A DNA stretch of 64,000 nt from an uncultured Lentisphaeraceae bacterium (GCA_949282555.1 CASDPK010000008.1:3108-67107); one strand, 5' to 3'; shown: positions 2,259 to 58,014, counted from the stretch's first letter. The notes: generated by a model from the sequence alone, not told the origin. A program made the numbers and translations.

Positions 2259-2289
2259 GGCTCCGTATCTCCCGCTGAGATACGGAGCC
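2259..2289. repeat. Perfect 13-bp-stem hairpin GGCTCCGTATCTC-ccgct-GAGATACGGAGCC carrying the GCTCCGTATCTCC core repeat
   Basis: The inverted repeat was read directly. The same 13-mer occurs again at 57978-57990, and with one mismatch in reverse orientation near 44300. Confidence 0.6.
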
Positions 2290-2443
2290 TGCGGTGCTGG
2301 GACCGCCTGTGTGTCTCCACGCCCCGGGGCTGCCTTCACCGTTTGGTTGCCGTTTCCTGTGAGGGTATGTTAGGATCCCCCCAGTGCTCGGGACGTGTTG
2401 CAGAGGGAACAGGTCTGCTTCCCGGGCGGAAGGAACAACGGTG

Positions 2444-3055
2444 ATGGATGTCGCGCGTAAGATTTTGGGATGTTCTTGTGCTGCCGGGTGTGCGTTGGCG
2501 CTGGTGGCGTTGGGAGTGGCCGTTGGCGTAGGGCTCTACTTTGGGGGGAGTCTCCTATTGGGCTTCATTGAGCATTCCGACAAACATGGGTCTTTGAATG
2601 AAGTGTTTCATTCCGAAGAACGTTTTTATTCCATTCGGGGAGATTGGGATTGCGCTCGCGTTCCATTGCGTTTCCCGTATTCATTGGTGACGCTGGATGA
2701 TGACGCTGGGATCACATTGGCCAAGCGAAACACCGTGCTTCTTGAACGTGTCGCTTCCATCGGGTACCAAGGCGGTTATTTCGCGGGTGTCGGATTCCCT
2801 TTGCAGGGTTCGTCCAATTCGGAGGTTCAGCATTGGTTTTTGATTTCTCCCAAGGGGGAATATTTGGCTTTTGATGACTTTGCTCGGTTCTCCGCGGCGC
2901 TTGATGACCGCCATCTTGTAATGTTTACGCTTTATCCTGCAGGCGACCTTCTGTATGTGTTCGGGCAGACGGGGGATTGTCGTCCCCTGTTCAGAATTGA
3001 GGATTTGAGGAAGCCCAAATCCGCCGAGGGTGACGGGAAGGCGTGTCGGCCATGA
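2444..3055 (+). CDS. Hypothetical membrane-anchored protein
   Basis: ATG at 2444 follows GGAAGGAACAACGGTG. N-terminal hydrophobic segment ALALVALGVAVGVGLYFGG. Lower-GC region, no recognisable domain. Confidence 0.45.
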   Translation: MDVARKILGCSCAAGCALALVALGVAVGVGLYFGGSLLLGFIEHSDKHGSLNEVFHSEERFYSIRGDWDCARVPLRFPYSLVTLDDDAGITLAKRNTVLLERVASIGYQGGYFAGVGFPLQGSSNSEVQHWFLISPKGEYLAFDDFARFSAALDDRHLVMFTLYPAGDLLYVFGQTGDCRPLFRIEDLRKPKSAEGDGKACRP

Positions 3056-3192
3056 TTGGGTTCCTCGTTGTTTCGCCTTTGATTGCGCTTTCGGCTTGTC
3101 TTTGCCTCTCACGTTTTTTGATGGACAAGTGGATTTAGGATTTGTGATCGAGTGAAGGCCATGCTGTTATCTTTTGTCAGAAAGGGGGCTTG

Positions 3193-3708
3193 ATGATGAA
3201 TCGTCTGGTTTATGCAGTCGTGGCGTTCGGTTTTGTTGGCATAAACATTGCCGTTGCGGTGTCTGGTTATGATGTGGATGAAGTAAGATGGTGTTCCCCA
3301 CGGTCGCGGACACCTAATGCAAAGCGGGATTGTGACATTACGGATCTTCGTTTGGTGGCGGATGGGCGTGTGAGTGCGCTCTTTTATAAGGTGGAGCCCA
3401 AGTGGCGAATCCCTTTTATCTCGGACGCTTCCGTCGTCGCGAAATTGACCTTTCATGAGATACGGTTTGATCCGGAGACGGAAAACCTCCTGGAAGAGCG
3501 TGAATTACCGACGTGTTTCACAGGCAACATCACTTCTGAGCTTGCGATCTATGAGCCTGCTGCCACGTGGCTAGGGGATTCCATCATTTGCTCTTATCTC
3601 TCCATGGATGAGGGCGAAGAGCTAGACCGCGCGTATGGCTGTTTTGTCCCGGCGCATAGGGGATCGCATGTCGTGTCACTCAAACGGGCTCCCAGCCAAT
3701 TCCAATGA
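3193..3708 (+). CDS. Hypothetical secreted protein
   Basis: ATGATG start after AAAGGGGG. Signal-peptide-like N-terminus MMNRLVYAVVAFGFVGINIAVAVSG. No recognisable domain. Confidence 0.45.
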   Translation: MMNRLVYAVVAFGFVGINIAVAVSGYDVDEVRWCSPRSRTPNAKRDCDITDLRLVADGRVSALFYKVEPKWRIPFISDASVVAKLTFHEIRFDPETENLLEERELPTCFTGNITSELAIYEPAATWLGDSIICSYLSMDEGEELDRAYGCFVPAHRGSHVVSLKRAPSQFQ

Positions 3709-3893
3709 TGACATGTGTCCCGATGGGATATGAAACGGACCGCCCAACCTTATTGTTCCCGCGGTATAGTCGTCGTGCGAATGCAGATTGGGGATTGGGG
3801 AAGGGCGCTGTCCCTCTGCCACATCCATCTTATCTTCTTCAGACTGGACGTGGGGAACGAAAGACGATTGTCCGTGATAGGATTGAGGGGACA

Positions 3894-4196
3894 ATGCAGT
3901 TACGGAGAAACATTTTGCGTGGGTTGTTCTTTTTTGGGCTTGGGGAAGAAAAGGGGACTTCGCGCCTTTTGTTCGTTTTTGAGGATCGGTTACAGGGAGG
4001 TCCTGGAACCGTGTGTGCCTACGACCTTGAGAAGCGTCAAGCCGAGCCCATCTCTCCCCCCATCAGAATGACGTTCCTTCCCCCATTCATGGAAGGAGAT
4101 GGGGGGGATGATGGGGGGGCGCGTACAATGACGCTTGCGTTGCCGCCAGAGGGAATGGGTGATAGGCTACATTATCTTGTCTATGTCTTAAAATAG
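3894..4196 (+). CDS. Questionable small hypothetical ORF in an ORF-poor low-GC segment
   Basis: Internal ATG of ORF 3705..4196 preceded by GAGGGGACA. Overlaps an alternative-frame ORF 3715..4071. Coding status is uncertain. Confidence 0.2.
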   Translation: MQLRRNILRGLFFFGLGEEKGTSRLLFVFEDRLQGGPGTVCAYDLEKRQAEPISPPIRMTFLPPFMEGDGGDDGGARTMTLALPPEGMGDRLHYLVYVLK

Positions 4197-4783: not shown

Positions 4784-7591
4784 ATGAAATGGATGTTTAT
4801 GATGTTGGGCCTGTTCCCGACGGTGTTGAGTGCGGTCACGGTGGCGACACCGCCTTATGTCTTTGAGTTGGATGATGGATTCCCACGCATACGGTCGGTT
4901 CAACGAGAGGGACGGAAGCTTCCTTTTGCCGCGCCAGCGGAGACGCCAGCGTTCCTCCTGAATGGCCATCCGCTTCCGGCCGCGAAGTGCTTTCAGGTGG
5001 ATGAGTCAACGGTGCGTTACACTCTTGGGCCGGTGACGTTGCGTGCGACGGCGAAAGCAGACGGCCTTCTGATTGCTTGCGAGCCGACAGAGGCCACGGG
5101 AGCGTTGTCCTTCTCTGGAGTGGGGCTCTCAACATCGGATGCGAAGGCGCGTTTTATTTGGACGCGCATGAAGCCGATGACCGATTCCCCCGATCATGAA
5201 GGGACGCTTTCTTCTGCACCTTTTTCGGAAGCCTGCAATTATGCGGCGGTCTGGACGCCTGAGGCAGGGGTGATGCTTATCACGAATGGTCTCAATGAGC
5301 GGGAACGGGTGCGCCTTGCGGGCGATGGAAAGGCATTGGCGTTTCATCTGCCGACGTTTACTTTGGCGGGGGATGTGCCGCCTCCGGCGTGGCAATGGGT
5401 TTTTGCGCCTGCTGACCCGCGATTGGCGGCGGAGAACGGTTGGCAGGCGGTTGCCCGTGCGGCGCGGAGGAGGTTGCCTAAGCCTTTCGGGGCGGAGCGC
5501 ACACGTGACATTGTCACCTCGCAGATCGCCATCAATTTCGCAAATCTCACGCAGAATCCCTTTTTGCGTGTGCTCGACGCGGTGAAGCGTGCCGCGTTGG
5601 CCACGGATGGCTTGCCGCAGGAACTCTTGCTGAAGGGATATCAGGGCGGTGGGCACGATTCGTCGCATCCCGATGTGGCGGCGGAGAACCGTCAGGCGGG
5701 AGGTGCCCGTGACATGAACCTACTCATCGAGAAGGCCAAGGCCTATCATGTCTCGGTGGGGGTGCACATGAATTGCACGGAGGCGTATCCAGAGTCGCGC
5801 CATTTTACGGCGCCTTATGTGACGAAGCGGCCAGCGTGGCGGTGGCTTGATCAAGCATGGAAAATCGACAAGGAATTGGATATTCGCTCAGGGGCGCTGT
5901 TTGCGCGTATTGACGAATTGACGTCCCTCTATCCCGGGCTTGGCTTTGTGTATGTGGACGCGTATCAAGACGTGGGCTATGCCCCGTTGAAAATCGCCGA
6001 GTATCTCAACGCCAAAGGGTTGCGCGTGTGGACGGAGTTCGATACGGCGATGGATGCTGTGACGGTGGCCTCGCATGGCCGTGGACGCATAAAAGGGCGG
6101 TTGGTGCGTTTCCTTTGGAACGCCGAGCGCGATATTTTCCGACACGATGCATTGTTGCCTGCGGCCAATCATGACGGCTTTTTAGGCTGGGATTGCGAGC
6201 GGGATTTCAACGCGTTCGTCCGCAATGCGTTTACGCGTTGTTTGCCCGCGAAGTATCTCCAAGGTTTTGACCTTCTGCGTTGGGAAAAGGACCGTGCCGT
6301 CTTCGATGGCCCCGTTTCCGATCGACAGGTAGATGGTTCGGTGCGTATCGTGAACGACGGATTGGAGATTTACCGTGCCACATCGAAGGGGAAGGTGACT
6401 GTGGCGATCCCATGGCCGGCGCGTAAGCCTACGCGACTCTATCTTCGTTCGGATACGGCTGCTCGTGTGGAAGGCCCGCTCCCCAAGGAGTTGGCGGAGG
6501 GTTTGCCGTTACGCCTCTGGCGTGTGACGGATCAGGGCCGTGTGGCATTGCTTTTGCCCGAACGTGCGCTGACGGGGGGACGTTTCATGCTTGACCTCCC
6601 GGCGGGCGAGGTATGGGTGCTTGATGCGAATCCCTCCACGCTTCCTGCCGATCCGATGTGGGGGGAAGGGTATCCGCTTCGTGAGCCAGGGTTTGAGACT
6701 CGGAGTTTTGCCCATTGGAAGAAAATAAAAGGGACGTGCGATATCGCCGATGATTCTTCGGGCAATCCGCGTCTCATCCTTGCCGGGGGTGCCGTGCGCC
6801 AAGAAACCGATGAGCTTCCAATCGGCGTTTACGACGTCTCGGCGTGGGTAAATGCCCGAGGACGCTTTATCCTCACGGCCGCGTCACCCGCGGGAATCGC
6901 CTCAGCCACATTGCGCGAGTCTGTCCCCAATCGTGACAATTCCGCCTGTGGCGGTTCCATACGCTTTAATACGCCTTGGCAACGCGTCCGAGCTCGGGTT
7001 ACGCTTGTGGCTCCCTCGCGACTCTCCCTCACGCTCGCGGGGGATGATGCAGAGGTGGATGACGTACGCATCGTGAAAGTTTCTCCTTCTCCGATCCCCG
7101 AAGGTGCGCTATGGGCGGAAGATTTTGAAGATTGCGACCAAGGTTGGGGGCCTTTTGTTTATGCCGTACCGAAAGGTGGACAACTTTTCACCCATCTTTC
7201 CGAAGCCAATCCGATCGACCGTTCACTCACCCCTGATGTTTTGTATGGGCGGTTCTCGCTGAAAACTTGGCGTGAACCCGTTGGCCCCATTCTCCGGACG
7301 CACGAAGGCCTCCTCCCTCTCCCCGAGGGTCGGCATCTCGTTTTTACTGCTGACGTGGCGCTTGATCATTCGGGTTATGCCCTGAATCTTTGTGATGGTT
7401 CGGGAAAAGTCCTTGCCACACAGGAAATTCCTGAGGGTAAGGGTGTTTTTCGGTTTGCTTTTGAGACTCCTGCAACGCCCGGAGCCTATCTTCGCCTTGA
7501 TAAACTTTCCAAGAATGCCGGAACCCTTCTTCTTGATAACCTCGTCCTTTGGGATGGAAGGGATTACTGCACTGCAAGTGACGAAAACTAA
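4784..7591 (+). CDS. Large secreted protein, putative glycoside hydrolase, with TIM-barrel-like central region and C-terminal beta-sandwich-like domains
   Basis: Signal peptide MKWMFMMLGLFPTVLSAVTVA. Central block LLKGYQGGGHDSSHPDVAAEN...HVSVGVHMNCTEAY...VYVDAYQD resembles endo-acting carbohydrate hydrolases, but family assignment was not possible by eye. Confidence 0.5.
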   Translation: MKWMFMMLGLFPTVLSAVTVATPPYVFELDDGFPRIRSVQREGRKLPFAAPAETPAFLLNGHPLPAAKCFQVDESTVRYTLGPVTLRATAKADGLLIACEPTEATGALSFSGVGLSTSDAKARFIWTRMKPMTDSPDHEGTLSSAPFSEACNYAAVWTPEAGVMLITNGLNERERVRLAGDGKALAFHLPTFTLAGDVPPPAWQWVFAPADPRLAAENGWQAVARAARRRLPKPFGAERTRDIVTSQIAINFANLTQNPFLRVLDAVKRAALATDGLPQELLLKGYQGGGHDSSHPDVAAENRQAGGARDMNLLIEKAKAYHVSVGVHMNCTEAYPESRHFTAPYVTKRPAWRWLDQAWKIDKELDIRSGALFARIDELTSLYPGLGFVYVDAYQDVGYAPLKIAEYLNAKGLRVWTEFDTAMDAVTVASHGRGRIKGRLVRFLWNAERDIFRHDALLPAANHDGFLGWDCERDFNAFVRNAFTRCLPAKYLQGFDLLRWEKDRAVFDGPVSDRQVDGSVRIVNDGLEIYRATSKGKVTVAIPWPARKPTRLYLRSDTAARVEGPLPKELAEGLPLRLWRVTDQGRVALLLPERALTGGRFMLDLPAGEVWVLDANPSTLPADPMWGEGYPLREPGFETRSFAHWKKIKGTCDIADDSSGNPRLILAGGAVRQETDELPIGVYDVSAWVNARGRFILTAASPAGIASATLRESVPNRDNSACGGSIRFNTPWQRVRARVTLVAPSRLSLTLAGDDAEVDDVRIVKVSPSPIPEGALWAEDFEDCDQGWGPFVYAVPKGGQLFTHLSEANPIDRSLTPDVLYGRFSLKTWREPVGPILRTHEGLLPLPEGRHLVFTADVALDHSGYALNLCDGSGKVLATQEIPEGKGVFRFAFETPATPGAYLRLDKLSKNAGTLLLDNLVLWDGRDYCTASDEN

Positions 7592-8100
7592 TCGGACTCC
7601 CACTTACAAGTCAATTGGGTCAGCCGTTTAGGATGACAGAAGTGCGACAACGTGTGTGGCCGGAAAATACCGTTCAGGAGGTGCTGCATGTGCTTGACTT
7701 GGGCGGGGAGATACATGGGAGAAATCCGTGTTCTCGGGAAACCAAAATCGTGAGGGACCGTTGGCGTGTTCGATGGAGCCTGTCTCCCGAGCGTTTTTCG
7801 GTGCTGCGGCTTTTCGGCAAATGGATAGCTTTGCGCACACTGCGCTTCGGTCGGGTTCGCGTGGACGATAACGCAACCGTCCGTACGATAACCGATGGCA
7901 TCGCGCAACTGCCCTTATCGAAAACGCCTTAGACCCTCGCTTGACGTTGGCATTCCACAATTGTTCCGATGCTTGCCATCCTCTGGGTGCCTTCCTTTTC
8001 TTGTCTGCCCTTGACCCACCATATTGTGTGACTTGTCCGGCTCGAAGGGCGTGGTTGGGTCGCAAAGTGAGAGAGGTGTTTGTGGTATACTATCGTTGCC

Positions 8101-9264: not shown

Positions 9265-9281
9265 TACGGAGGAAGTTTTCC

Positions 9282-13132: not shown

Positions 13133-14314
13133 ATGCTTACCATTGCCCTTACCCGACACCCTCACGCCCGCAAAGAACTGTTCCTTGGGAAAACGCTTCG
13201 CGTGGTTTCCCGTAGCGGCCTCAACCCTACCGAAGCCGCTCTCATTGAGTTCCTTCCGGAGTTGCCGCAGTCGTTTAACGTGCCGCTTTTTATTGGAGGG
13301 CGCACCGGTGCGCTCGCGATGGCCGTTTGGTTGCGCGGAATGGCCGCGGGGGGGCCTCTCATCCTTCACACGTTCGATGCGCATACGGCTACGACATTCT
13401 CACGGAACCTCGCAGAAAACAATGCGCCGTTATGGGATCCTAAGCTGTGCGTCCAGGTTCCTGGCTTTGAAATCAGTACGGCGTTGGACATCGCTGCCGT
13501 TGGTGACGATATTGCCTTTTGGCAGATGACGCGTGGTGATGGTACGGCCGAGCAACATCTTTTTGTGCTTGAGCAGCTGGTCAGTGATTGCGGTGTGAAG
13601 GAGCTCGTCATCGCCGCAGAAGAGCTGAATCCCACCTTTCTCGAACGTTTTCGCAAGGCTTGCACGAAAGTCGTTCTTCGCAAACAGGCAGGCGTGACCC
13701 TCCTGCGTGGAAGCGTGACCCATCCTTATCCTTTGGCGGAGCTTCCCAATCATTGCGCCACTTTTGAGGTTTCCCTTAGAGGCCATGCTCCCATCACCCT
13801 CGAAACGTGGCCCGGTTGTTTCTGTCATCGCCGCGCCGATATGGGCGGTCTTGCGCTTACCGAGGTCGTTGCCGAACAGGTGACCTTCGATAAGGGGGAT
13901 CGCATCATGGACATGGGGTGTGGTTGCGGTATGGATGGTATCCTCCTTGCCACGGCTTTTCCGGAAAAGGCCCTTCGTATCGACTATCAGGACTCCAATG
14001 CCGCTGCGCGCGACAGTACCGAGGCGAATCTTCGTCGCTACCCTCATGACGCTCGGTTCATCTTCTCCGCCGAAGGGGAGGGCACCCCGAGCTCTTATGA
14101 CCTTCTCTTGGCGAATCCGCCCTATTTCGGGGATTGGCGCATCGCCGAGTTCTTCATTCAGACGGCGGCTCGCTTGCTTAAGAAGGGCGGTTTACTTGCG
14201 TTCGTTTCCAAGCGTGAAGCCAAGCCGATGGAATTGATGAGCGCCGCGGGGTTTGAGCATTTGGGAACCTTCTCCCGCCGAGGTTATACGGTCCTCTTGG
14301 CCGCGCGCCGCTAG
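13133..14314 (+). CDS. Two-domain class I SAM-dependent methyltransferase, RsmC/RlmG-like rRNA (guanine-N2) methyltransferase
   Basis: C-terminal MDMGCGCGMDGIL (SAM motif I) and LLANPPYF (NPPY catalytic motif). ATG at 13133 lies 8 nt after the Sir2 stop. Confidence 0.7.
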   Translation: MLTIALTRHPHARKELFLGKTLRVVSRSGLNPTEAALIEFLPELPQSFNVPLFIGGRTGALAMAVWLRGMAAGGPLILHTFDAHTATTFSRNLAENNAPLWDPKLCVQVPGFEISTALDIAAVGDDIAFWQMTRGDGTAEQHLFVLEQLVSDCGVKELVIAAEELNPTFLERFRKACTKVVLRKQAGVTLLRGSVTHPYPLAELPNHCATFEVSLRGHAPITLETWPGCFCHRRADMGGLALTEVVAEQVTFDKGDRIMDMGCGCGMDGILLATAFPEKALRIDYQDSNAAARDSTEANLRRYPHDARFIFSAEGEGTPSSYDLLLANPPYFGDWRIAEFFIQTAARLLKKGGLLAFVSKREAKPMELMSAAGFEHLGTFSRRGYTVLLAARR

Positions 14315-36916: not shown

Positions 36917-37645
36917 ATGAATCGTAAAATTGTTCTTACGGTAAGTGCCGCAATGTTGATGGGAACCTTACGTGCGGAATCTCCGCTCAATATTATCCAA
37001 GTGAACTTGGGGCAGGTGCCAACGCTTATCAAGGAGGAGCCGAAGCAAGTGCGTGAGCCGGAGGCGGATGCCAGGAGCGTCAGGCAGGAGTCGGAGAAGC
37101 CGCAGCCCAAGATTGCGGAGACCGACTTTGAAGGGCGGCTTAAGGTAATTGAAGAAAAGTTGAAATCATCTTTCAAAGAGTTGTTGGACGCTCGGAATAA
37201 AGAGATAGAGGCCTACAAAGCAAACTTCTTTGCCCATCTTGAGACCAAGCTCAAGGAGGCTCAAACGTGTGGCGATTTGGATGCCTATGAGACGTGGAAC
37301 GACCGAAAGGAACGTTTCCAACGTCTTCAGAGCTTGAACGGTTGGACGGACGTACTTTATCGCTGTGGGAACAAAAAGTGGTGGACTATTGTTAACGGTA
37401 TGCGTTTCGATCCCAACGATATTCAAGGTACGGAAGTGCCTAATTTTGAGGAACTCTACGGTGATTCCATTAAGAAGGTGTATCAAGAGGCGGATAAGGC
37501 CGCAGAAGAAGTCCAGCGCGATGCTCTAAGACTGGGTAAAGTGGAGGTGTCCAAAAATGTTCGGGAGTGGCGTAACAAAACATTGTCCAACAATAAAGAA
37601 CGCAGCATGGATTTTCTCATTCGTGGTATTCGTGGCAGAGAGTAA
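36917..37645 (+). CDS. Hypothetical secreted coiled-coil protein
   Basis: AGGAGG RBS. Signal peptide MNRKIVLTVSAAMLMGTLRA. The mature part is Lys/Glu-rich. Confidence 0.5.
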   Translation: MNRKIVLTVSAAMLMGTLRAESPLNIIQVNLGQVPTLIKEEPKQVREPEADARSVRQESEKPQPKIAETDFEGRLKVIEEKLKSSFKELLDARNKEIEAYKANFFAHLETKLKEAQTCGDLDAYETWNDRKERFQRLQSLNGWTDVLYRCGNKKWWTIVNGMRFDPNDIQGTEVPNFEELYGDSIKKVYQEADKAAEEVQRDALRLGKVEVSKNVREWRNKTLSNNKERSMDFLIRGIRGRE

Positions 37646-37650
37646 CTGAG

Positions 37651-40149
37651 ATGAAGACACGTGCATTATTTTGTTGGGTCGGCGCTCTAGGATGCCTCGC
37701 TGTGGCGGGATGCATCCGTGGGCCTTTCCGTTCGGCCATCGTTGGCGACAAAGAGTCCGCCACGGTTCAGTGGGTAAAGGCAAAGCCCGTGTTGGCACCG
37801 CTTTCGGCCCCCGTCGGCATCTTGACGGATGTCGTTTTGGTTCCGATGGATACTGCAACTTTATTGAGCATCAATTGTGCATGGCGGCCATTTCTTGATA
37901 ATGCGACTCTGAGCGGATCCGAGGATCATTACTTCCCTGCAGCCATACCTAACATGTTTGTGCTTCCGTTGTTACCGCACCTGTTCACCATTGGCAGTAC
38001 GTGTGATTACTATGTGGATCTCTTTGGCAATCGAACGGAGTGGCATCTCAAACAGTTACTCTCTGAGAAACGTTATGATGACGCACTAAAAATCGTGACG
38101 GAAGGAAGTGGTATACCAAAGCCGACGGCAGTGCCAAAACGTGGCCTTTATTGGGCGAACGAAAGGAATGAATGGGCTCCCATCATACAGAATACGCAGA
38201 ATGCTTGGCGGGAGCAGTGGACGAAACAGATTTCCAATCTTGTGAAGGATGAGGCCGAACGATTGGGACGCATTTTGCAGACCGCCGATTCCCCTGAGGA
38301 ATGGGACAAGGCCAACGCAGAACTTGCGCGTTTGGGGGCGAACGTCACAGGGGATAAGGCTTCATGGCGAGCACTTGCCGTTTGGCGCGAGGCCTTGAGA
38401 AAAGGGGATTATGAAACGGCGTGGGAGTTGCTCAAAGAGTATCCCTCCGTTTGCTTCGATGGGCTTCCCATGTATTATGCCGAATGTGTCAGTAGAGGAT
38501 TCCCGAAGGCGTTTCGAGCCAAATTGTATGATGTAGGCATGCTTCATCCCTTCCGAGTTGGGGATTGCGCGTTGTTGTTGTGGCAACAGGATACAGATAT
38601 TCTGAAACACCCCCGGTTCCGTCTTCCTTTAGAAGCGGCACTGCCGGCCTTGAATGGTTCGTTGAAGGATCTTCTAGCCTTTTTGGACGTGACGCAGGGC
38701 GTGACCTACGCATTTGCACCTGTTTCCTCGGGAGATTATGCCGCAGTCGATGAACTTTTACAGGCAAAGCACCCCAAGCGCTTGATGCAAGCCATTAAGC
38801 AGAAACTTTTGGCGGGCGACGCTGCGGTGCTTGTGGCACTTGTAGAAATGGGAGAGATGGAAGAAGCTCAGCGGTTATGGGTAGAAGCCAATGATGAAGC
38901 CCAAAATGAAATATTGGCCTTGGCTCTTGACGAAGCGAACCCTAAAGGTGAACAGGTCATCACGGCACTTTCTTGTCCAACACGGGGAGTGTGGTGGCCG
39001 GCTTTCCAGCGCTTGTGTCGGCAAAAGAATAATGCCATGTGCCAACAACGTTTGGTGGCATTGCAAAACGCCGGCTGGATTTCGGAAGAAAAGATATGGT
39101 CCACACGCAAAAGACTCTTCACCGAAGCGGCTAGGGCATTGTTGGCGCGCGCCACGGCAGTTACGATTTCTCTGGAAATCCCGCATGGGGAAGAAGAGGC
39201 CGAGTTACTTACAGACTTCCCGGAGTTCAAGGAATCTTTTGCCAATCTGAAACAGATACGCATGAAGGAACTTTTCACAAACCGTCCGTTTAAGGAGATT
39301 CTCGAAGTCGCCCGAACGGGGAATGGCGCTACGGCCATTGAGATGTTGAAGTGCAATCCCTCCTTAAGGGTTGTCTCTCCCAATGATGTGGTGCTCGGAA
39401 TTGAAACGCAAAATGATGCCTTCGCTAAGGCCCTTATTCAGCGTTGCCCCAACTTGAACGGGGAGCCCGACGCTGTAACACCCCTTATGGCGGCTGTATG
39501 GCACAACCACGCAGAAATCGTCAATCTGTTACTCTCGCGCAAGGTCAATGTGAATCGCAACGTTTCCAAAGAGCAATTCATTGCGTGGGCTTCGACAAAT
39601 GATGCAATGGAACGCTATCTTGAGGAGCGCTTTGACGCACGGAACGACGTGGACGCAATGTATTTGGCGTTGGAGATTCTCCCCTCCCCGGCAAGCGTTC
39701 GCTCCCTGTTGGGTGCAGGAGCCTATTATGACAGTACGCCACCCATCAATACCTGTCTTGCACTCGCTATACGCAAGAATAACATGAGCGATGAGAGGTG
39801 GAATGCGCAATGTGAACAACGGGTGGAATGCGCATTGGCTATTCTGAATGCTGGCGCAGAAGCGAATGTTTTCGTTTGTGAAGAGGAAGAAGTCCATACC
39901 ATTGTACTTTACGCGATCCTTTATACCGATTCTCAGGAACTCGTTCGGGCGTTGGTGCGCAAAGGTGCCCCTGTCTCCCTAGAGGCCGCCAATGCCGCCA
40001 TTCAGAAGGACTGGGTTAAGTTGGGCGAGTGGCTTCACTCAAAGGTCGACGACGATTGCAGGACGGAGAATGCCATTCTTGCGGAGAACCTCATGAAATA
40101 CGCAGACGCCGTCCCTTGGCTCCGTGCGCTTCTCCGGAGCCTCCAGTAA
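37651..40149 (+). CDS. Large lipoprotein with C-terminal ankyrin repeats
   Basis: Lipobox LAVAGC. C-terminal TPLMAAVWHNHAEIVNLLLSRKVNVN-type ankyrin repeats. Confidence 0.55.
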   Translation: MKTRALFCWVGALGCLAVAGCIRGPFRSAIVGDKESATVQWVKAKPVLAPLSAPVGILTDVVLVPMDTATLLSINCAWRPFLDNATLSGSEDHYFPAAIPNMFVLPLLPHLFTIGSTCDYYVDLFGNRTEWHLKQLLSEKRYDDALKIVTEGSGIPKPTAVPKRGLYWANERNEWAPIIQNTQNAWREQWTKQISNLVKDEAERLGRILQTADSPEEWDKANAELARLGANVTGDKASWRALAVWREALRKGDYETAWELLKEYPSVCFDGLPMYYAECVSRGFPKAFRAKLYDVGMLHPFRVGDCALLLWQQDTDILKHPRFRLPLEAALPALNGSLKDLLAFLDVTQGVTYAFAPVSSGDYAAVDELLQAKHPKRLMQAIKQKLLAGDAAVLVALVEMGEMEEAQRLWVEANDEAQNEILALALDEANPKGEQVITALSCPTRGVWWPAFQRLCRQKNNAMCQQRLVALQNAGWISEEKIWSTRKRLFTEAARALLARATAVTISLEIPHGEEEAELLTDFPEFKESFANLKQIRMKELFTNRPFKEILEVARTGNGATAIEMLKCNPSLRVVSPNDVVLGIETQNDAFAKALIQRCPNLNGEPDAVTPLMAAVWHNHAEIVNLLLSRKVNVNRNVSKEQFIAWASTNDAMERYLEERFDARNDVDAMYLALEILPSPASVRSLLGAGAYYDSTPPINTCLALAIRKNNMSDERWNAQCEQRVECALAILNAGAEANVFVCEEEEVHTIVLYAILYTDSQELVRALVRKGAPVSLEAANAAIQKDWVKLGEWLHSKVDDDCRTENAILAENLMKYADAVPWLRALLRSLQ

Positions 40150-40308
40150 CTGGGAAATCTCCGAGGCGTGCAGTATGAACATCGTAAGGCACGCCTTGGT
40201 GGACAACATGGAGAAGGGCCAGTCCTATCTCGTCAAAGGTTTGGCGCGACATTCGGCGAAGACACATCAAGTTGAGGCAGTGTAAAAGACAAACAGAAGG
40301 AAGTTGTT

Positions 40309-42057
40309 ATGGAACAAACCCGTGCAGAACGAAATCGTACACTCGCGTTGTTGTTTTTGGTGCTTGCGACGGTTGTTGCGGGCGTGGCCTCTTTTGTTTG
40401 GCAGAAAGAACCGTTCTCTCAACAAAAGGAAAGGCTTACTTTGGATGAACATGAGGGAAGACTGGAATGGTATCGCAAAGCCGCTGAACAGGGGGATGCG
40501 GCGGCGCAATTTAACCTTGGCGTACTGTATGCCAATGGGGAAGGGGTGCCACAATCGTATGAAGAGGCTGCGAAGTGGTGGCGTAAGGCGGCGGAACAGG
40601 GGAATGCGGAGGCACAATTTAACCTTGGCTTACTGTATGCCAATGGGGATGGTGTGCCGCAGTCTTATGAAGAGGCCGTCAAGTGGTTTCGCAAAGCGGC
40701 CGAACAGGGGCTTGCGGCCGCACAATATACCCTTGGGTTGAGATATCTCAATGGTCAGGGAGTCACTCTGTCTCATGAGGAGGCGGTCAAATGGTTTCGC
40801 AAGTCCGCGGAACAGGGATTTGCGGCCGCACAACATAACCTCGGTGTGATGTATCTCAATGGTCTGGGCGTTTCGCAGTCGTATGAGGAAGCCATCAAGT
40901 GGTTTCGTAAATCTGCGGAACAGGGACTTGCGGCCGCACAATATAACCTTGGCGTGATGTATTTCGAAGGTCAGGGTGTTTCACAGTCGTACAAGGAGGC
41001 GGTTGAGTGGGTTCGCAAAGCTGCGGAACAGGGCCTTGCTGCCGCACAAAATAACCTCGGCCTGATGTATCTCAATGGTCAAGGTGTCCCACAGTCTGAC
41101 GTGGATGCCGTCAGGTGGTTTCGCAAATCTGCCGAACAGGGGATAGCGGAAGCTCAATGCGCGCTTGGTGGGATGTATGCCACGGGCAAGGGGGTGTCAC
41201 AATCCTATGAGAGGGCTGGTAAATGGTTTCGTAAGGCCGCCGAACAGGGAGATGCCGTCGCTCAATATTATCTTGCTTCGTTGTATGCAGAGGGGCAGGG
41301 TGTCGAACAGTCTTATGAAGAAGCAAACAAATGGTATCGCAAGGCCGCGGAACAAGGAGATCCCGACGCTCAATTCGAGCTCGGTGTGATGTATATGGAG
41401 GGAAAATTGGGGCCTCAGAACGCAACAACGGCGATAAGATGGTTGGAGAAGGCTGCAGAACAGGGACATTCTGAGGCACAACAAGCGCTTGATTCACTGA
41501 AGCAGAACAAGCAATCATCTCAGAGACCTGACTTCGGGGCGCCATCTGCGGATGAGCACTCAATGGAGCAAAATAAATCATCTTTTCAAGCTCCCATGAA
41601 GGGATTTTCGTTTTGTGGTATCGCACTGGGAAGTGTGAAAGAGGCCACCGCCAAGAATGATGAGGGTTATCCGCTTTACACTGGGAAATTGGGACAACCG
41701 TTTAGAGGCATTGATGAGGTGAGGTGTTTTCTGACGCCTTCGAAACGGCAGGTCTTTGGAATTCGTTTGGCAAAAGCGTTTTCTTCCTATTCGGAGATGT
41801 GCAAGGAGCAGGAAACAATCAAGCGTCTGCTGGAGATCAAGTATGGAAAGACGCCGGATAGAGTGGAGAAAAATGATGCCCAAAACGACGACTATTATTG
41901 GTTTTTGGAAGACGGGACGATTGTGGTGAACTTGGATGCCCCAACAGACGAAGTGATGGTATTGGATGTAATCTCCCTCCCATTGCAACAGAAAGCCGAA
42001 GAAGAGCTTCGTCAGAAGACGCTTGAAGAGAACGCCGCCGATTTGAAGGCCCTCTGA
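40309..42057 (+). CDS. Sel1-like (TPR-family) repeat protein with C-terminal non-repeat domain
   Basis: About 10 tandem 36-aa units AAEQG-AAQ-NLG-MY-NG-GV-QSYEEA-KWFRK-. Single N-terminal TM or signal segment. Confidence 0.8.
   Translation: MEQTRAERNRTLALLFLVLATVVAGVASFVWQKEPFSQQKERLTLDEHEGRLEWYRKAAEQGDAAAQFNLGVLYANGEGVPQSYEEAAKWWRKAAEQGNAEAQFNLGLLYANGDGVPQSYEEAVKWFRKAAEQGLAAAQYTLGLRYLNGQGVTLSHEEAVKWFRKSAEQGFAAAQHNLGVMYLNGLGVSQSYEEAIKWFRKSAEQGLAAAQYNLGVMYFEGQGVSQSYKEAVEWVRKAAEQGLAAAQNNLGLMYLNGQGVPQSDVDAVRWFRKSAEQGIAEAQCALGGMYATGKGVSQSYERAGKWFRKAAEQGDAVAQYYLASLYAEGQGVEQSYEEANKWYRKAAEQGDPDAQFELGVMYMEGKLGPQNATTAIRWLEKAAEQGHSEAQQALDSLKQNKQSSQRPDFGAPSADEHSMEQNKSSFQAPMKGFSFCGIALGSVKEATAKNDEGYPLYTGKLGQPFRGIDEVRCFLTPSKRQVFGIRLAKAFSSYSEMCKEQETIKRLLEIKYGKTPDRVEKNDAQNDDYYWFLEDGTIVVNLDAPTDEVMVLDVISLPLQQKAEEELRQKTLEENAADLKAL
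40480..41480 (+). repeat. Tandem array of 108-bp coding repeats (Sel1 units) inside the Sel1 gene
   Basis: Near-identical nucleotide units recur (cgcaaagc/tgcggaacagggg...gcacaatataacc...). Confidence 0.7.
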
Positions 42058-42101
42058 TGCGCCCAGTCATTTTTCACTCAAGCAGCAAAGGAGATAGTAT
42101 C

Positions 42102-42689
42102 ATGCACAGCACAAAGACGAGTCATGTTTCGGAAAAGGATGTGTTGGTCGCACTGTCGGCGGCACAATCCACGCGTCCGAAGGACTCCGCAAACAATACC
42201 CGGAACGAGGAGAAACAGACGACTCCTGAGGGTGGATGTCCACAGAGGACGAGTAGCCATCAGCGGCCAAGGCAATGTTTTGCGCCATTCTTTTCTGCGT
42301 GGAAGCATTGCACAACGGTAGGGCGCGCCTCGCGTTCAGAGTTTTGGTTCGGTTTTTTGCAACTGTCGTTGACGTACTTGCTCTTGGAGCAACTCATATT
42401 ACGTGTGAATCCAGAGATATGCGAGTCTTGGTGGTGGACTTTGGTGTTCGGTGGTCTCTATATTGGGCTCGATTTCATGTGGACGACGCGCCGACTTCAC
42501 GATATTGGGATGTCCGGGCTGCTTCCGTTAGTAATTCTGTTGGGAACGTTCGCAGTAGGGGTAGGGGCAGTGGGCTATTTCTTCCTTAAATTAGTCATTT
42601 TCCCTCTTATGGTTATTGTAATTGTTCTTTGTCTGTGGCCGAGTCAGCCGAGAGAGAACAAGTACGGCCCCGTGCCCTACGTTGAGTGA
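42102..42689 (+). CDS. DUF805 (YhaH-like) inner-membrane protein with hydrophilic N-terminal extension
   Basis: RSEFWFGFLQ..., RRLHDIGMSG, and C-terminal TM helices. AAAGGAG RBS before ATG 42102. The alternative ATG 42057 overlaps the Sel1 stop. Confidence 0.55.
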   Translation: MHSTKTSHVSEKDVLVALSAAQSTRPKDSANNTRNEEKQTTPEGGCPQRTSSHQRPRQCFAPFFSAWKHCTTVGRASRSEFWFGFLQLSLTYLLLEQLILRVNPEICESWWWTLVFGGLYIGLDFMWTTRRLHDIGMSGLLPLVILLGTFAVGVGAVGYFFLKLVIFPLMVIVIVLCLWPSQPRENKYGPVPYVE

Positions 42690-43699
42690 TTGGGCTGTCG
42701 GGTGTGGCGTGGATTTGCCGACACTGTGGGCACGAGGAGCCGTATCAAAATCCGGCGGCGGAGGTGGTGTGCCCACAGTGTGGCGTCTTGGGATTCTCGG
42801 ATGACGTGACCTCTTCCCCCGTGCCGCCGACGACGCCTTCGGCGGGCACGGAAACGGAACCTTCCGAAGATGTTGTTCCCTGTTTGGGGCCTGAGGCGGT
42901 TGTCGAGGGCGGACGGGGTGCATTGTCTTCGCAGAGGGAGGTCGTGGGGAACTTTGCGCAGGAGTTGGTTGCCGATGCGGTAGCCAACCCCGACACACCC
43001 GAAATGGCGGAGGCGGCGACGGAGGAGACGGAGCCGTGGGTCGCTCTCGTGGCCTGTGGACTTTGCGTACTGGTGTTTGCCTACCAGCGATTCATTGGCC
43101 CCACGTTGCTTGAGGTGGATACGGCGTGGGTGGATGAGACCTTCGCTTTTTGGTGGTATGGAGGAAAGGCCGAACAGTGGTGGCAGTGGGTGACGGGAGC
43201 CTTTCTCCACGGGGACGGCTTGCATTTGCTGGGAAATATGCTGGCGAGTTGTGGACTCATGTCCGAGGCGGAAAATCGGATCGGTCACTTCTCCATGGTT
43301 GGGCTAATTCTCTTGGGGGCGATTGCCGGAAGCTTTGGTGAGTTGCTCTTTCAGTTTTTCTCGGCGGGAACGATGCCGGGTGGCCTGTATTGTGTTGGGT
43401 TTAGCGGGGTGGTGTGCGCGTTTGGCGGGGTGTTGCTCTTTAGCAGATCTTTTTGGGTTTTGCCGTTTCTTCTGCCATCGCTCATTCCAACGGAGGCGAC
43501 CGGGGATGAAGCGTCTCTCATTGCCTATGGTGGGCATCTCGGCGGCTTCTTGTTGGGTGCCTTTTTTGGGTTCATTTCCATCTTTGCGGGGAAACGCACG
43601 TTTTTGGTGATTATCGCTATTGTGATATCGCTCCTCTTCGTGTGTGCACTCGTCCTTTTTCTTTTAGTGGCCTTAGGAGACACAGAGGGGCTTTCATAG
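42686..43699 (+). CDS. Rhomboid-family intramembrane serine protease with N-terminal zinc ribbon
   Basis: CRHCG...CPQCG, then rhomboid catalytic GFSGVVCAFGG (GxSG) and YGGHLGGFLLG (His). GTG start overlaps the DUF805 stop. Confidence 0.65.
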   Translation: MIGLSGVAWICRHCGHEEPYQNPAAEVVCPQCGVLGFSDDVTSSPVPPTTPSAGTETEPSEDVVPCLGPEAVVEGGRGALSSQREVVGNFAQELVADAVANPDTPEMAEAATEETEPWVALVACGLCVLVFAYQRFIGPTLLEVDTAWVDETFAFWWYGGKAEQWWQWVTGAFLHGDGLHLLGNMLASCGLMSEAENRIGHFSMVGLILLGAIAGSFGELLFQFFSAGTMPGGLYCVGFSGVVCAFGGVLLFSRSFWVLPFLLPSLIPTEATGDEASLIAYGGHLGGFLLGAFFGFISIFAGKRTFLVIIAIVISLLFVCALVLFLLVALGDTEGLS

Positions 43700-43743
43700 T
43701 TCTTCAGATACTTCCATCATCTGTCAGAATAGGAAGGAACTTA

Positions 43744-44232
43744 ATGGTTTTTTTGGATGAGGAAATCTTGGATTATCAGCAACAGTTGGTCGTTCAGGGG
43801 GAGTTTCGGAAACTGTCGCGACGGTATCACACGACGTTTGGCGTTTATCCCGAGCGCGACGATGTATTGCGTCGCACACGCAGATACCTTTTTTGGGCTC
43901 AAGTTAAGCGATGGTGTTGTCTTCTTTTCCTGACGCCAATACTGCTCTTTTGTGCATCGGGTGTTCTATTGTTTTTTAGTCCTGATCTGGTCGAAAAGGT
44001 GTTAGGCGTTATTTTTGGCGTTGTCGGGGTGAAGGTTTTTCGTCCTTGGCGAAAGGCTTTTCTCAATACACCAAGGAACTGGTTCCGCCCAAAGGCAGAA
44101 TCCGATTTTTGGTCGAAGAGATCAGAACAACAAAAGAATGGGACTCGGAAGGATGTTTGGTCGTTCGATGAGAAGGGGTTTCTGCTTCATCGCCTTGCTG
44201 AGATTTACGAAATCACGATAGAAGAGGTTTAA
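43744..44232 (+). CDS. Hypothetical membrane protein
   Basis: GGAAGGAAC RBS. One or two TM helices. No family recognised. Confidence 0.4.
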   Translation: MVFLDEEILDYQQQLVVQGEFRKLSRRYHTTFGVYPERDDVLRRTRRYLFWAQVKRWCCLLFLTPILLFCASGVLLFFSPDLVEKVLGVIFGVVGVKVFRPWRKAFLNTPRNWFRPKAESDFWSKRSEQQKNGTRKDVWSFDEKGFLLHRLAEIYEITIEEV

Positions 44233-44274
44233 ACGTCCCTTGCGGGGGGTGTTTTGGGAGGTTCTGTATCGGAG

Positions 44275-44334
44275 AGGGAGATGTAGTGCATCCCAAGAGG
44301 AGATGCGGAGCATCCTAGGTTGGGGTGCTCCGCG
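44275..44334. repeat. Reverse-oriented copy of the ~38-bp island-boundary repeat (GGAGATGTAGTGCATCCCAAGAGGAGATGCGGAGCA) plus an adjacent inverted GTGCTCCGC arm
   Basis: The reverse complement matches 57977-58014 with 4 mismatches over about 38 bp. Confidence 0.55.
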
Positions 44335-44383
44335 TTTCGTTGTGAGGGTCGCGCTTGGGGATGGGCTGTGCTAGAATGAGGGC

Positions 44384-55303: not shown

Positions 55304-55310
55304 GGGAGCC

Positions 55311-57731
55311 TCACTTTTTGGCTTTGCGGGTCCGGGAGGGGGCCTTGATGGCGTGGCGTTCGGCCAAGGCGGGATAGTCGGGGATCTGCCCGCGGTAGCT
55401 TCTCACCAAGCGTTTGAGCGCCTCGAACTGACGTTCCGTGAGGAAGTGGCGGTCGTTGAGCTGGCGGGTGAGGCTTTCCAAGAACTCCCGGTCATCGTAG
55501 GTCCGCTTGCCGCGCTTGACGGGCTCGGCCCATTCGGTGACGTGGTCAAACGCCTTCAAGAGGTCTTTGGCGGCCGCTTCGTTGTCGGGGTGCGCGGTGT
55601 CTTCCGCCGGCACGGCAATCCGGCGCAGCAGGGCCAATTGTTTCGGCGAGAGGTCACCCTTTCGGGCGAATTGATCGCGCACGGATTCGGTGAAGCGCTT
55701 TTCCCACGCGGAGAGCTCGCGGCCTTCCAGCGCATCGAAGAGGGATTGCACTTCGGCCTTGTCGAGCGTCGGGGGAAGGGGCCCGACCACGTCTTCCAGC
55801 TGAGGCAGTTGGTCACGATACGAAATGGCCATGCGCGTGAGGGTCGCCAGCTGGGCCTTGGTCAGCGCCTCACCTTGGGCGACGGTGCCGCGCATTTCTT
55901 CGAAGAACGCCTGATCGTCCCACGAGACCTTCCCGGTCTTGGTGAGGGTGGGAGCCTTCCACTCGCGCACCTGCGCCAACTGGTCGAGCACGGGCCCCAC
56001 ACGCTTGGGGTCGGCGGCGAGCCATTCGGTGAGCTTGGCGTAAAAATCGGACACCTTCTGTTCCCAATCCAGCGAACCATCGGCGACCTTGTCGAGGGCA
56101 TCTTCCATTTGCGCGGTGAACTCCACGTTCACGAAGTCCGGCATTTGGGCGAGGAGATAATCCGTGGCGGCAATGCCCATGTCGGTGGGCGTGAGCACGT
56201 GCCCCTTGCCGCTCTTCACATAATCGCGGGCCAAGAGGGTGCGCACGGTGGCGGCGTAGGTCGAGGGGCGGCCGATGCCGTTTTCTTCCAGGGCCTTGAC
56301 GAGGGAGGCTTCGTTGTAGCGGGCCGGCGGCTGAGTCTCTTTCCCTTCGCAGAGCCATTCGCGGCAACGCACGCAATCGCCTTTGTCGAGGGCTGGCAAT
56401 GCTTTGACGTCACCCTCTTCGCCCTCGTCCTTGCCGTGCGACCACACGTTCAGATAGCCCTTGAAGACCACCTTTTGCGCGGAGGCGGTGAAGCGGTAGG
56501 CGTGGCGCGTGGGCGGGGGGACGGTCGGCTCGAAGGTCAGGGTTGTGCGCTCGAAACGGGCGGCGGCCATTTGGCTGGCCACAAAGCGCCGCCAAATGAG
56601 GTCGTAAAGCTTGGCTTGCTGGGGCTCCACGCCCTCCAGCTTCGGCTTCGTCACGTCGGTGGGGCGGATCGGTTCGTGGGCCTCTTGGGCGTTCTTTACC
56701 TTGTTGCCGTAGAAGTTGGGGGTGGCGGGCACACATTCTTTGCCGAACAGGCGCGCGATCTCCGCCTCCACCGCACCGCGGATGGAGGCGCTCACGGTGT
56801 ACCCATCGGTACGCATATAGGTGATGTGCCCCTCTTCGTAGAGCGCTTGGGCGATGCGCATGGTCTGGTCGGGCGAATAGCCCAAATGGGTGGCGGCGGC
56901 CTGCTGGAGGGTGGAGGTGATGAAGGGCGGCTGGGGCCGCTTGCCCACCGTCTTGCGCTCCACGGAGAGCACACGCACGTCGCGCCCTCGGAGGTCTTCC
57001 AAGTAGGCGTTGGCGGTGGTTTCCTCAGCGATGCCCTGCACCTCCTTGTCATAGGCCATGAATTTGGGCGCCGTGCCATCAACGGAGGCCAACCGGGCAT
57101 CGAAGGCGCACGCCCCCTTTTCCAAGCGGGCGCCCAAGAGCCAATAAGGGGTGGGGCGGAAGGCCTGCACCGCGCGTTCGCGGTCAACAATCAGGCGCAG
57201 GGCCACCGATTGCACACGCCCCGCGCTGCGGGCTCCGCGCACGGTGTTGGAGATGAGTTTGGAAATCTTGAACCCCGAAAGCCGATCCTCAATCCGTCGG
57301 GCCTGCTGGGCGTTCACAAGGTTGGTGTCGATTTCCGTGGGGTTCGCCAGCGCGTCGAGCACGGCCCCCTTCGTCACCTCGTTGTAGCGCACGCGGAAGA
57401 AGCGCCGCTCGCCCGGGACATCCTTCAGCACTTCGTAAAGGTGCCAAGCGATGCTCTCACCCTCTCGGTCAGGGTCGCTTGCGAGATAAACCGTCGTGGC
57501 TTTGGCGGTGGCCTTGCGCAAATCGTCCACAACCTTCTGCTTGTCCTTCGGGATCACGTAATTGGGCGCAAAATGGTCGGAGACGTTCACGCCAAGCACA
57601 AATTGCGGCAAATCGCGGATATGCCCCACCGAGGCCATGACCATGGTCTCTTTCGACACGTAGGAGGCAATCTTCTTCGCCTTGCTGGGCGATTCCACGA
57701 TAATGAGCGAACGGTTCTTCTTGGCTGCCAT
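55311..57731 (-). CDS. topA: DNA topoisomerase I with C-terminal extension
   Basis: Toprim N-terminus LIIVESPSKAKKI, the catalytic tyrosine region, and size typical of type IA TopA. Confidence 0.9.
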   Translation of the reverse strand: MAAKKNRSLIIVESPSKAKKIASYVSKETMVMASVGHIRDLPQFVLGVNVSDHFAPNYVIPKDKQKVVDDLRKATAKATTVYLASDPDREGESIAWHLYEVLKDVPGERRFFRVRYNEVTKGAVLDALANPTEIDTNLVNAQQARRIEDRLSGFKISKLISNTVRGARSAGRVQSVALRLIVDRERAVQAFRPTPYWLLGARLEKGACAFDARLASVDGTAPKFMAYDKEVQGIAEETTANAYLEDLRGRDVRVLSVERKTVGKRPQPPFITSTLQQAAATHLGYSPDQTMRIAQALYEEGHITYMRTDGYTVSASIRGAVEAEIARLFGKECVPATPNFYGNKVKNAQEAHEPIRPTDVTKPKLEGVEPQQAKLYDLIWRRFVASQMAAARFERTTLTFEPTVPPPTRHAYRFTASAQKVVFKGYLNVWSHGKDEGEEGDVKALPALDKGDCVRCREWLCEGKETQPPARYNEASLVKALEENGIGRPSTYAATVRTLLARDYVKSGKGHVLTPTDMGIAATDYLLAQMPDFVNVEFTAQMEDALDKVADGSLDWEQKVSDFYAKLTEWLAADPKRVGPVLDQLAQVREWKAPTLTKTGKVSWDDQAFFEEMRGTVAQGEALTKAQLATLTRMAISYRDQLPQLEDVVGPLPPTLDKAEVQSLFDALEGRELSAWEKRFTESVRDQFARKGDLSPKQLALLRRIAVPAEDTAHPDNEAAAKDLLKAFDHVTEWAEPVKRGKRTYDDREFLESLTRQLNDRHFLTERQFEALKRLVRSYRGQIPDYPALAERHAIKAPSRTRKAKK

Positions 57732-57976
57732 CGAAAAGGGTCCTTTCGGAAAAGTCCCTAAAGCAATAGCACTCTCCCGTGCCTCTTGGCAAGCCTTTTT
57801 TCTCCCCAAGTCCCCTATACTATATTCTATAGTATAAAGTGCGGCGCGATGGCCGACGTTGGCCGCAAACTCCAAAAACCTGCGCGAAGGGAACCCCTAA
57901 AACCCCCGATCCCGGTCATAGGATTAAGATGGGGCAATGCGGGCGTTGTCGAAGCCTACCGTCCTTCATCCCCAAG

Positions 57977-58014
57977 TGCTCCGTATCTCCCCATGGGATG
58001 CACTGCATCTCCCT
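57977..58014. repeat. Forward copy of the ~38-bp island-boundary repeat (TGCTCCGTATCTCCCCATGGGATGCACTGCATCTCCCT)
   Basis: Shares the exact 13-mer GCTCCGTATCTCC with 2260-2272. Shares about 34 of 38 bp with the reverse complement of 44277-44312. Confidence 0.55.

Follow-up and report, generated by a model that had tools for sequence, protein, structure and literature searches.

Do short repeats at the borders of low-GC islands mark those islands, or do they belong to an ordinary family of dispersed repeats? The question arises from a 64,000-nt stretch (the window) of an uncultured Lentisphaeraceae bacterium. The first-pass annotation had described three copies, each in a spacer where high-GC backbone meets a low-GC block, and had read the family as an island-edge marker. 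The repeat family is genuine, its copies lie in spacers and the three noted copies do sit at backbone/low-GC junctions, but its role as an edge marker did not hold up. Those three copies are real, but a fourth one in the window (c5 below) had been overlooked. Two more were found just outside the window, so that the ~84 kb of the species' genome examined contain six loci, as follows.

c1: 2254 to 2295, no strand assigned, hairpin-only copy made of two inverted cores, GGCTCCGTATCTC-CCGCT-GAGATACGGAGCC (2259-2289)
c5: 24073 to 24127, minus strand, GAGTCCGTATCTCG-GGGCGAGA-GGCTCCGTATCGCG-AGCGTG-GATGCGGTGCA, two direct modules 22 nt apart and then an inverted core
c2: 44257 to 44335, minus strand, four cores, in minus-strand order D', unit 1, unit 2 and A'
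c3: 57977 to 58030, plus strand, unit 1 TGCTCCGTATCTCC (57977-57990), spacer CCATGGGA, unit 2 TGCACTGCATCTCC (57999-58012) and a decayed inverted core TGAGACATGCCGTG
c4: outside the window, between the 3′ ends of convergent genes, GC 0.62-0.67 on both sides
c6: outside the window, upstream of dapA, away from any GC transition, visibly decayed

The building block of the family is a 22-nt module, formed by a core (GCTCCGTATCTCC) and ~8 nt with GAGA or GGGA at the end. After one to three direct modules comes an inverted core, giving a hairpin. The 14-nt core, which begins with TGC, GGC or GAG, is not itself palindromic; the palindrome is made by two cores. The start-to-start spacing of modules is exactly 22 nt in c2, c3, c4 and c5, as well as in the arrays of two related species (L104 and L100). 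Five of the six loci fall in spacers, and ORFs cover ~91% of the window. Both orientations occur among the copies, their orientation relative to flanking genes is inconsistent and no conserved flanks were found among the copies of this species.

The 13-mer GCTCCGYATCTCC was found where it had been reported, at 2260-2272 and 57978-57990 on the plus strand, and again at 44299-44311 on the minus strand. With one mismatch allowed there are 4 matches against 0.23 expected, and at least 4 were obtained in 0 of 100 shuffles. The core and the double module are likewise far above shuffle expectation, and TCCGTATC, present twice at 22-nt spacing in c5, has 3 matches against 0.00 expected. The reverse match between c2 and c3 has the reported length and identity (34/38), but runs from 44275 rather than 44277 (44275-44312, minus strand, against 57977-58014, plus strand). 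The look-alike peptides translated from spurious small ORFs across it, MLRISSWDALHLPLRY and ...LRISPWDALHLPMRH, were reproduced. A chance recurrence of about 10^-3 is right for a 13-mer chosen beforehand, but by our own arithmetic becomes ~0.1 if any 13-mer of both 38-mers may recur. For this reason the membership of c1 rests on leave-one-out profile searches, which recovered each copy (nhmmer E = 6e-5 for c1), and on the shared architecture.

A closer inspection of the copies reveals differing degrees of preservation. The perfect 13-bp hairpin of c1 was borne out at 2259-2289, its second arm being a one-mismatch copy of the 13-mer at 2276-2288 on the minus strand. Flanking CGCGA/UGCGG pairs lengthen the stem, and the predicted energy is -38.4 kcal/mol (z = -5.7). 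It lies 51 nt past the stop of a VWA gene (364-2208, plus strand) and the next gene (plus strand) starts ~155 nt further on, at 2444. The hairpin of c4 is also perfect (z -3.7), and the stems of both c1 and c4 are 12-14 bp. In c2, two hairpin modules face opposite ways; each of the other copies is a singlet that bears a direct partial duplication. Its cores are D' (inverted, 44320-44333, TGCTCCGCGTTTCG on the plus strand), unit 1 (44299-44312), unit 2 (44277-44290) and A' (inverted, ~44261-44275). Pairing of D' with unit 1 gives a GC-rich hairpin with an 8-bp stem, after which comes GTTTCGTTG. The copy begins 25 nt past the stop of an ORF at 43642-44232 (plus strand) and ends 49 nt before yraN (44384, plus strand). 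Copy c3 lies within a 505-nt divergent spacer between topA (start 57731, minus strand) and a lipoprotein-like gene (58237, plus strand); its hairpin and that of c5 are decayed, and the fold of c3 is not significant (z -1.4). Copy c5 lies inside a pseudopilin operon with no GC step, in frame at codons ~16-34 of the ORF at 23377-24174 (minus strand). The leader of this pseudopilin is 48 aa long, against 12-25 aa in six paralogues; orthologues in more distant relatives have leaders of 8-22 aa.

Comparison with other strains gave no sign of purifying selection in c2 or c5, and near-identical strains carry no conservation information for c1, c3 and c4. Copy c2 holds 6-7 SNPs in ~88 nt against 1.3% overall, the densest cluster of the 6.9-kb strain alignment, and the divergence of c5 from a strain of 96% identity matches the background rate. 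Homologous 22-nt modules were found at other loci in L104 and L100. In L104, CTCCGTATCTCGACCCGAGAGG occurs at two non-orthologous spacers, twice and three times respectively, between common flanks, and the orthologous pilin leader carries 3.5 copies of a related 22-nt unit, GCGTGTCTCGACCCGAGCCTCA. L100 contains 2.5 copies of CGCCGTCCTCGACCCCGAGATG. Counterparts of c5 lie in frame within the pilin leader ORF in L103-L105, and L103 also has 22-nt arrays of unrelated sequence in the same genome. No exact cores were present at the topA loci of relatives (80-88% amino acid identity), where synteny is lost upstream of topA.

Wider searches, in genome and metagenome collections that lack this species, returned no further members. 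The double-module pattern gave 3 matches in genome contigs of GTDB representatives, from unrelated taxa and at about the chance expectation. In metagenome contigs the hairpin pattern matched 78 loci, all of them unrelated hairpins, one recurrent in human gut; homology of these loci to the present genome was limited to one dnaE match. There was no match among viral contigs (pattern scan) or among plasmids and phages (blastn). A DNA-uptake sequence was rejected, as coding DNA shows no excess of the core. A sigma-54-type -24/-12 promoter in the 38-mer was rejected by eye, the GG-to-GC spacing being wrong.

We favour, at a probability of about 0.55, the reading that these copies form a dispersed family of short hairpin repeats, non-coding, specific to the lineage and REP/BIME- or BOX-like, in an uncultured gut Kiritimatiellia bacterium. 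The ancestral unit would be a stem-loop of ~30 nt, with GCTCCGTATCTC, a loop of 4-5 nt and GAGATACGGAGC. Its first 22 nt (the 5′ arm, the loop and the first 5 nt of the 3′ arm) would often have been duplicated in tandem, leaving one to three direct modules and an inverted core. Copies would have dispersed through intergenic DNA in either orientation, once landing in frame in a cleavable pilin leader, and would since decay or drift neutrally. They may be spread by a trans-acting enzyme encoded elsewhere (RAYT-like or another transposase), or by recombination or slippage. The intact hairpins at gene 3′ ends (c1, c4 and c2 D'/unit 1) may act incidentally as RNA 3′-end or stabiliser structures. 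The copies may also be recombination breakpoints, which would explain why some are found where variable low-GC blocks abut the backbone; c2 is a possible hot spot because the synteny with one strain, L004, breaks exactly at its edge. Neither target-site duplication nor empty-site polymorphism was observed. The flanks of c1-c5 carry no direct duplication, and the TIR with target-site duplication that defines a MITE is absent.

REPs are described as elements of ~20 nt with a palindromic core, extragenic and species-specific, occurring as inverted doublets and in more complex arrangements (PMC3337134). Like the REP, BIME and REPIN elements of E. coli and Pseudomonas, which are ~20-40 nt long with an imperfect palindromic core, the present copies are short, GC-rich and lineage-specific in sequence, form hairpins, and combine direct and inverted cores in mosaics. 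They are also predominantly extragenic, in either orientation and often at gene 3′ ends. They differ in that the core is not itself a palindrome and in the strict 22-nt tandem module; there is no clear doublet with a 30-110 nt spacer as in REPINs, and no RAYT among the scanned ORFs of the window. RAYT-linked REPs have a conserved GTAG/GTGG head 5′ of the palindrome, and this head is absent from the present copies. REPs number hundreds per genome, and a single-copy RAYT (Y1 transposase) gene is flanked by them; the ~84 kb of the present species hold six loci. Two further observations tell against a REP-like reading: half of the copies lie at GC steps with the same polarity, and the 22-nt phasing is strict, also in the unrelated-sequence arrays of relatives, which hints at protein binding to one face of the helix.

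BOX of Streptococcus pneumoniae, MIRU of mycobacteria and STAR of Staphylococcus are dispersed, intergenic, modular repeats in which the number of internal subunits varies. The 22-nt unit of L104, at two, three and 3.5 copies between conserved flanks, behaves alike. The unit is much shorter than boxB (45 nt) or MIRU (46-101 nt), the copies of the window's species lack conserved flanks and there is no sequence similarity. In Rickettsia, the palindromic elements known as RPE enter coding genes in frame. Copy c5 and its counterparts likewise lie in frame, in a dispensable, cleaved leader peptide, but RPEs are longer (~100-150 nt) and only one of the six present copies is genic. Tn7 TnsB sites, Mu end sites and R6K iterons are arrays of 22-bp protein-binding repeats. 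They share with the present arrays the 22-nt period and the order of direct then inverted repeats, a resemblance of architecture only; the present arrays are chromosomally dispersed, have no transposase or replication genes nearby and show no sequence similarity to them, and between c2 and c3 lies housekeeping backbone (ybeY, dnaE, topA). Because of this interior, a composite transposon with c2 and c3 as its inverted ends was rejected.

The reading implied by the first-pass annotation, that the copies are recombination or attachment sites (att-like, or an insertion target) marking inserted accessory low-GC blocks, has in its favour that the GC steps at the three noted sites are as reported (0.63 to 0.52, 0.52 to 0.66 and 0.59 to 0.47 at c1, c2 and c3) and rank among the strongest in the window. 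Collinearity with L004 begins within ~5-10 nt of the left end of c2 and a third strain, L102, keeps the island there; in the relative L098 a 22-nt array adjoins a serine-recombinase element. (L102 was compared via the Sel1 homologue P0127, other Sel1 homologues being spread over many phyla.) However, c4, c5 and c6 are away from GC transitions, in backbone or operon contexts, and no copy is present at the far side of any of the three islands (~4.7 kb, ~36 kb and ~61 kb). The enrichment at GC steps has p ~0.05-0.15 by our own hypergeometric estimate over the window's spacer list, and the island-edge association of the family is weak. A link to tRNA or integrase genes, which the annotation had suggested checking, found no support in the window: the tRNA scan of the window found none, and no integrase or transposase, including Y1_Tnp, matched among the scanned ORFs. 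Moreover, all sampled strains carry islands 1 and 3, and the L004 junction could itself be a metagenome assembly join at the repeat. Genomic-island att sites and integron attC sites combine a repeat at both ends with an integrase or tRNA; here the repeat is one-sided only. No paralogy was found among the island proteins. Copies off compositional boundaries, and a REP-like copy inside an operon, are what the annotation had itself set against a boundary-specific reading, and both occur. We regard attachment sites as quite unlikely. The family is an ordinary kind of bacterial repeat and no island-boundary signal, and on present evidence it reveals no new island-integration mechanism.

Somewhat better placed, though still unlikely, are phased binding-site arrays for a DNA-binding protein (a regulator, nucleoid-associated protein or insulator) controlling neighbouring genes, the low-GC blocks included, with each 22-nt module, two helical turns, as one site. 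The exact spacing would follow, related species have conserved the core at loci that differ, five of the six copies lie upstream of some gene and the three island-edge copies all point with the motif's 3′ end into the island. Against this, c4 is flanked on both sides by converging 3′ ends, a place where a promoter would not be expected, and distances to start codons range from 49 to ~250 nt on both strands with varying orientation. Copy c2 is the most polymorphic stretch of its neighbourhood, c3 and c6 are visibly decayed, and one protein could not read all of the unrelated 22-nt arrays of L103. The consistent position and orientation and the purifying selection of an operator set are thus lacking. 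It is highly improbable that the copies are instead small RNA genes or cis-acting RNA elements (terminators, attenuators) with a common hairpin and no DNA repeat family as such. The strong hairpins of c1, c4 and c2 D'/unit 1 all lie 23-51 nt past stop codons, and GTTTCGTTG comes after the last of these, which speaks for such elements. However, the terminator scan found no U-tract or T-run site at any copy (the phylum's terminator rules may differ), no sigma-70 promoter was called at any of the copies, conserved promoters were not found, and Rfam 15 gave nothing at gathering score and no match overlapping the copies even at E <= 5. Moreover, c3, c5 and c6 are decayed or fold no better than shuffles, and some copies share the strand of the upstream gene while others do not. 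Very unlikely, finally, is a joint reading in which the phased modules bind a clade-specific DNA-binding or recombination protein at junctions of gain, loss or exchange of accessory low-GC blocks (ankyrin, Sel1 and lipoprotein cassettes). They would then form a new insertion-target or boundary element, and the 22-nt copies in the pseudopilin leader would be a slippage on/off switch for a T2SS/type IV pseudopilin. The unit length is such that 22 mod 3 = 1, and L104 has 3.5 perfect copies.

Repeats of this dispersed hairpin type have been studied extensively in Proteobacteria and Firmicutes; a full-text search of a library of papers found no description of them in Kiritimatiellota. A strict 22-nt-module family common to several uncultured gut species would serve as a marker for typing and for assembly breakpoints, and metagenome contigs may break or be mis-joined at such hairpin repeats. 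The family would also offer a handle on the enzyme that spreads its copies, and a system for testing whether recombination at accessory-block borders is seeded by such repeats. Extrapolated from the ~84 kb, its density would be ~1 copy per 14 kb.

The 13-mer GCTCCGYATCTCC that the first-pass annotation had singled out recurs at 2260(+), 44299(-) and 57978(+), with an inverted partner at 2276(-) carrying one mismatch. Four matches were thus found against 0.23 expected, a number never reached in shuffles. The 38-bp match was likewise recovered (57977-58014(+) against 44275-44312(-), 34/38 positions identical), as were the perfect 13-bp hairpin of copy 1 and the look-alike peptides, LRISSWDALHLPLRY and LRISPWDALHLPMRH, produced where two spurious ORFs read through the repeat. 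A closer inspection revealed that the 38-mer consists of two direct 14-nt units, TGCWCYRYATCTCC, with a start-to-start distance of 22 nt. Copy 1 contains this core twice in inverted order, and copy 2 contains four cores, of which the outer pair is inverted with respect to the inner pair. GAGA or GGGA terminates the spacer 3′ of each core, and these bases already belong to the start of the inverted core. The repeat is therefore most simply described as a ~30-nt stem-loop with its first 22 nt duplicated in tandem.

Contigs of the same species from other metagenome samples add ~10 kb to the left and ~5 kb to the right of the window. With these, the copies are as follows.

c1 (copy 1), window 2254-2295: two cores in inverted order
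c2 (copy 2), window 44257-44335: four cores
c3, window 57977-58030: includes the two direct units
c4, contig L005 18087-18140, ~2.3 kb past the window's right end: unit, GTGCGGGA, unit, CATC, inverted unit
c5, window 24073-24127 (- strand): three-core architecture as in c4
c6, contig L015 2540-2600: degenerate copy, upstream of dapA

Copy c4 has a perfect hairpin and is flanked by a Mem_trans gene and an Amidohydro_2 gene whose 3′ ends converge on it. Copy c5 was missed at first because it is within an ORF (23377-24174). The matches of the pattern CCGYATC-N15-CYRYATC are exactly c2, c3 and c5, with 0.00 expected. Leave-one-out profiles recovered c1, c3 and c4 at E = 6e-5 or better, c2 at E = 0.006 and c5 at 0.05. 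In total, six loci were found in ~84 kb of sequence from this species, which is not represented in the genome and metagenome collections scanned; 5/6 are in spacers, and orientation relative to neighbouring genes is mixed.

No exact cores were found in the topA loci of three species (80-88% amino acid identity); the organism itself is an uncultured member of the Kiritimatiellia, and topA relatives with a source name are labelled Kiritimatiellia or Candidatus Spyradenecus. Informative loci came from the pseudopilin clusters of three other relatives. Locus L104 (NCBI GCA_965301375.1) carries CTCCGTATCTCGACCCGAGAGG twice and three times in two non-orthologous spacers, the two arrays having ~150-nt flanks in common, and L100 (21686-21739) carries 2.5 copies of CGCCGTCCTCGACCCCGAGATG. 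Loci L103, L105 and L098 contain 22-nt arrays of other sequences in their spacers:

L098 19095-19199
L103 462-584 and 14590-14646
L105 13228-13325

A tandem period of exactly 22 nt was found in spacers of every relative examined. The units are mutually unrelated in sequence, even inside one genome, and each contains one palindrome of 5-7 bp. Inverted units close some arrays of L103, L105 and L098, and the L098 array adjoins a DUF2924 and large-serine-recombinase element.

Moreover, repeats of 22-nt period occupy the 5′ portion, coding for the leader, of a single pseudopilin gene of a T2SS-like cluster in four related species, at the same position and with species-specific sequences:

L104 10044-10119, 3.5 perfect repeats
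L105 6140-6246
L103 ~7440-7600
window 24073-24127 (c5)

Leaders of more distant orthologues are 8-22 amino acids long, so the insertion is derived in this subclade. The ORF is open across the array in 4/4 species. As 22 is not divisible by 3, one unit gained or lost would shift the frame, and the array could be a contingency (phase-variation) locus.

The first-pass annotation had placed the repeat at the edges of all three low-GC islands, which correspond to these blocks:

2384-4196
36039-44232
58237-60913

This stands only in part. GC steps are present at all three sites (2.3, 44.3 and 57.9 kb), but c4 sits amid GC of 0.62-0.67 on both sides and the opposite edge of each block carries no copy. 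With 3 of 4-6 copies at the strongest steps among ~20-28 spacers, enrichment reaches p ~0.05-0.15 (hypergeometric estimate). A link to tRNA or integrase genes found no support, the window being without any tRNA and the ORFs scanned in it without integrase or transposase. Block products include eukaryote-like proteins with ankyrin or Sel1 repeats, a DUF805 protein, a rhomboid protease and several small proteins that have lipoprotein-type signal peptides and match no Pfam family; no paralogy was found among them. A GH101 endo-alpha-N-acetylgalactosaminidase gene (4784-7591) adjoins the first block, consistent with a mucin-associated gut lifestyle.

Strain L004, 98.7% identical to the window, is collinear only from ~44252 to the right. 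To the left, a different Sel1 paralogue lies directly beside c2 (L004 3-1691), and the DUF805, rhomboid and 196-aa genes are absent. A third strain, L102, retains the island and has c2 sequence of the L004 type, which places the L004 break ~5-10 nt or less from the outer end of c2. Either the repeat is the site of a genuine rearrangement, or the contig was joined there during assembly. Over 6.9 kb of strain alignment there are 90 differences, 6-7 of them in c2, and the densest cluster (44254-44339, 7 differences in 86 nt against L004 and L102) lies exactly over c2. On the lineage of the window most of these changes are transitions from C:G to T:A, and the following 1.4 kb holds only one SNP. 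Copy c5, compared with a strain that is 96% identical, has substitutions at the background rate. Neither comparison points to purifying selection on the repeat sequence. Within the Sel1 gene at 40309-42057, a 108-nt tandem array (40466-41413) encodes 36-aa repeats, and the protein of this gene varies in length by strain (582 aa in the window, 392 aa in L102 (4826-6004), 531 aa in P0121).

In its behaviour the family resembles dispersed repeats of the REP/BIME or BOX type, as defined in PMC3337134: its copies are short, hairpin-forming, extragenic and mosaic, occur in both orientations, are lineage-specific and drift. Hairpins are intact at gene 3′ ends (c1, c4 and, in c2, the outer inverted core D′ paired with unit 1) and decayed in 5′ regions (c3, c5, c6), a distribution compatible with incidental use of the former as RNA 3′-end structures. 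The terminator scan found no U-tracts at the copies. A protein-binding array or recombination site is a live alternative, since a REP/BIME or BOX-type reading accounts neither for the strict 22-nt phasing nor for the way copies lie, with constant polarity and on one side only, at the edges of three islands.

The hairpin TGCTCCGCATCTC-N9-GAGATGCGGAGCA is one recurrent locus of human-gut contigs of GC 0.60 (L020, L022, L027 and ~30 others), and its arm equals the first 13 nt of c2 unit 1 in the window. As these contigs have no other homology to this genome, the likeness is probably convergent or due to chance. Near c2, yraN (ATG at 44384) has an extended -10-like TGCTAGAAT at 44369-44377, ending 6 nt upstream; this leaves no space for a Shine-Dalgarno sequence and suggests a leaderless transcript. 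In L105, 8-mer arrays bracket each pseudopilin gene, with GAGGCGTG on the downstream side and the complementary CACGCCTC on the upstream side or inside the 5′ end, together forming long inverted repeats that span the spacers:

L105 1480-1720
L105 2470-2780
L105 3390-3780
L105 4540-4640
L105 6940-7250

The 8-mer motif also occurs in L103; none was seen in the window. The spacer after tpiA is rich in repeats, with synteny broken in 4/4 species compared, and L103 has a 242-nt tandem repeat (13645-14253; ~2.5 copies with 94% identity) downstream of this gene.
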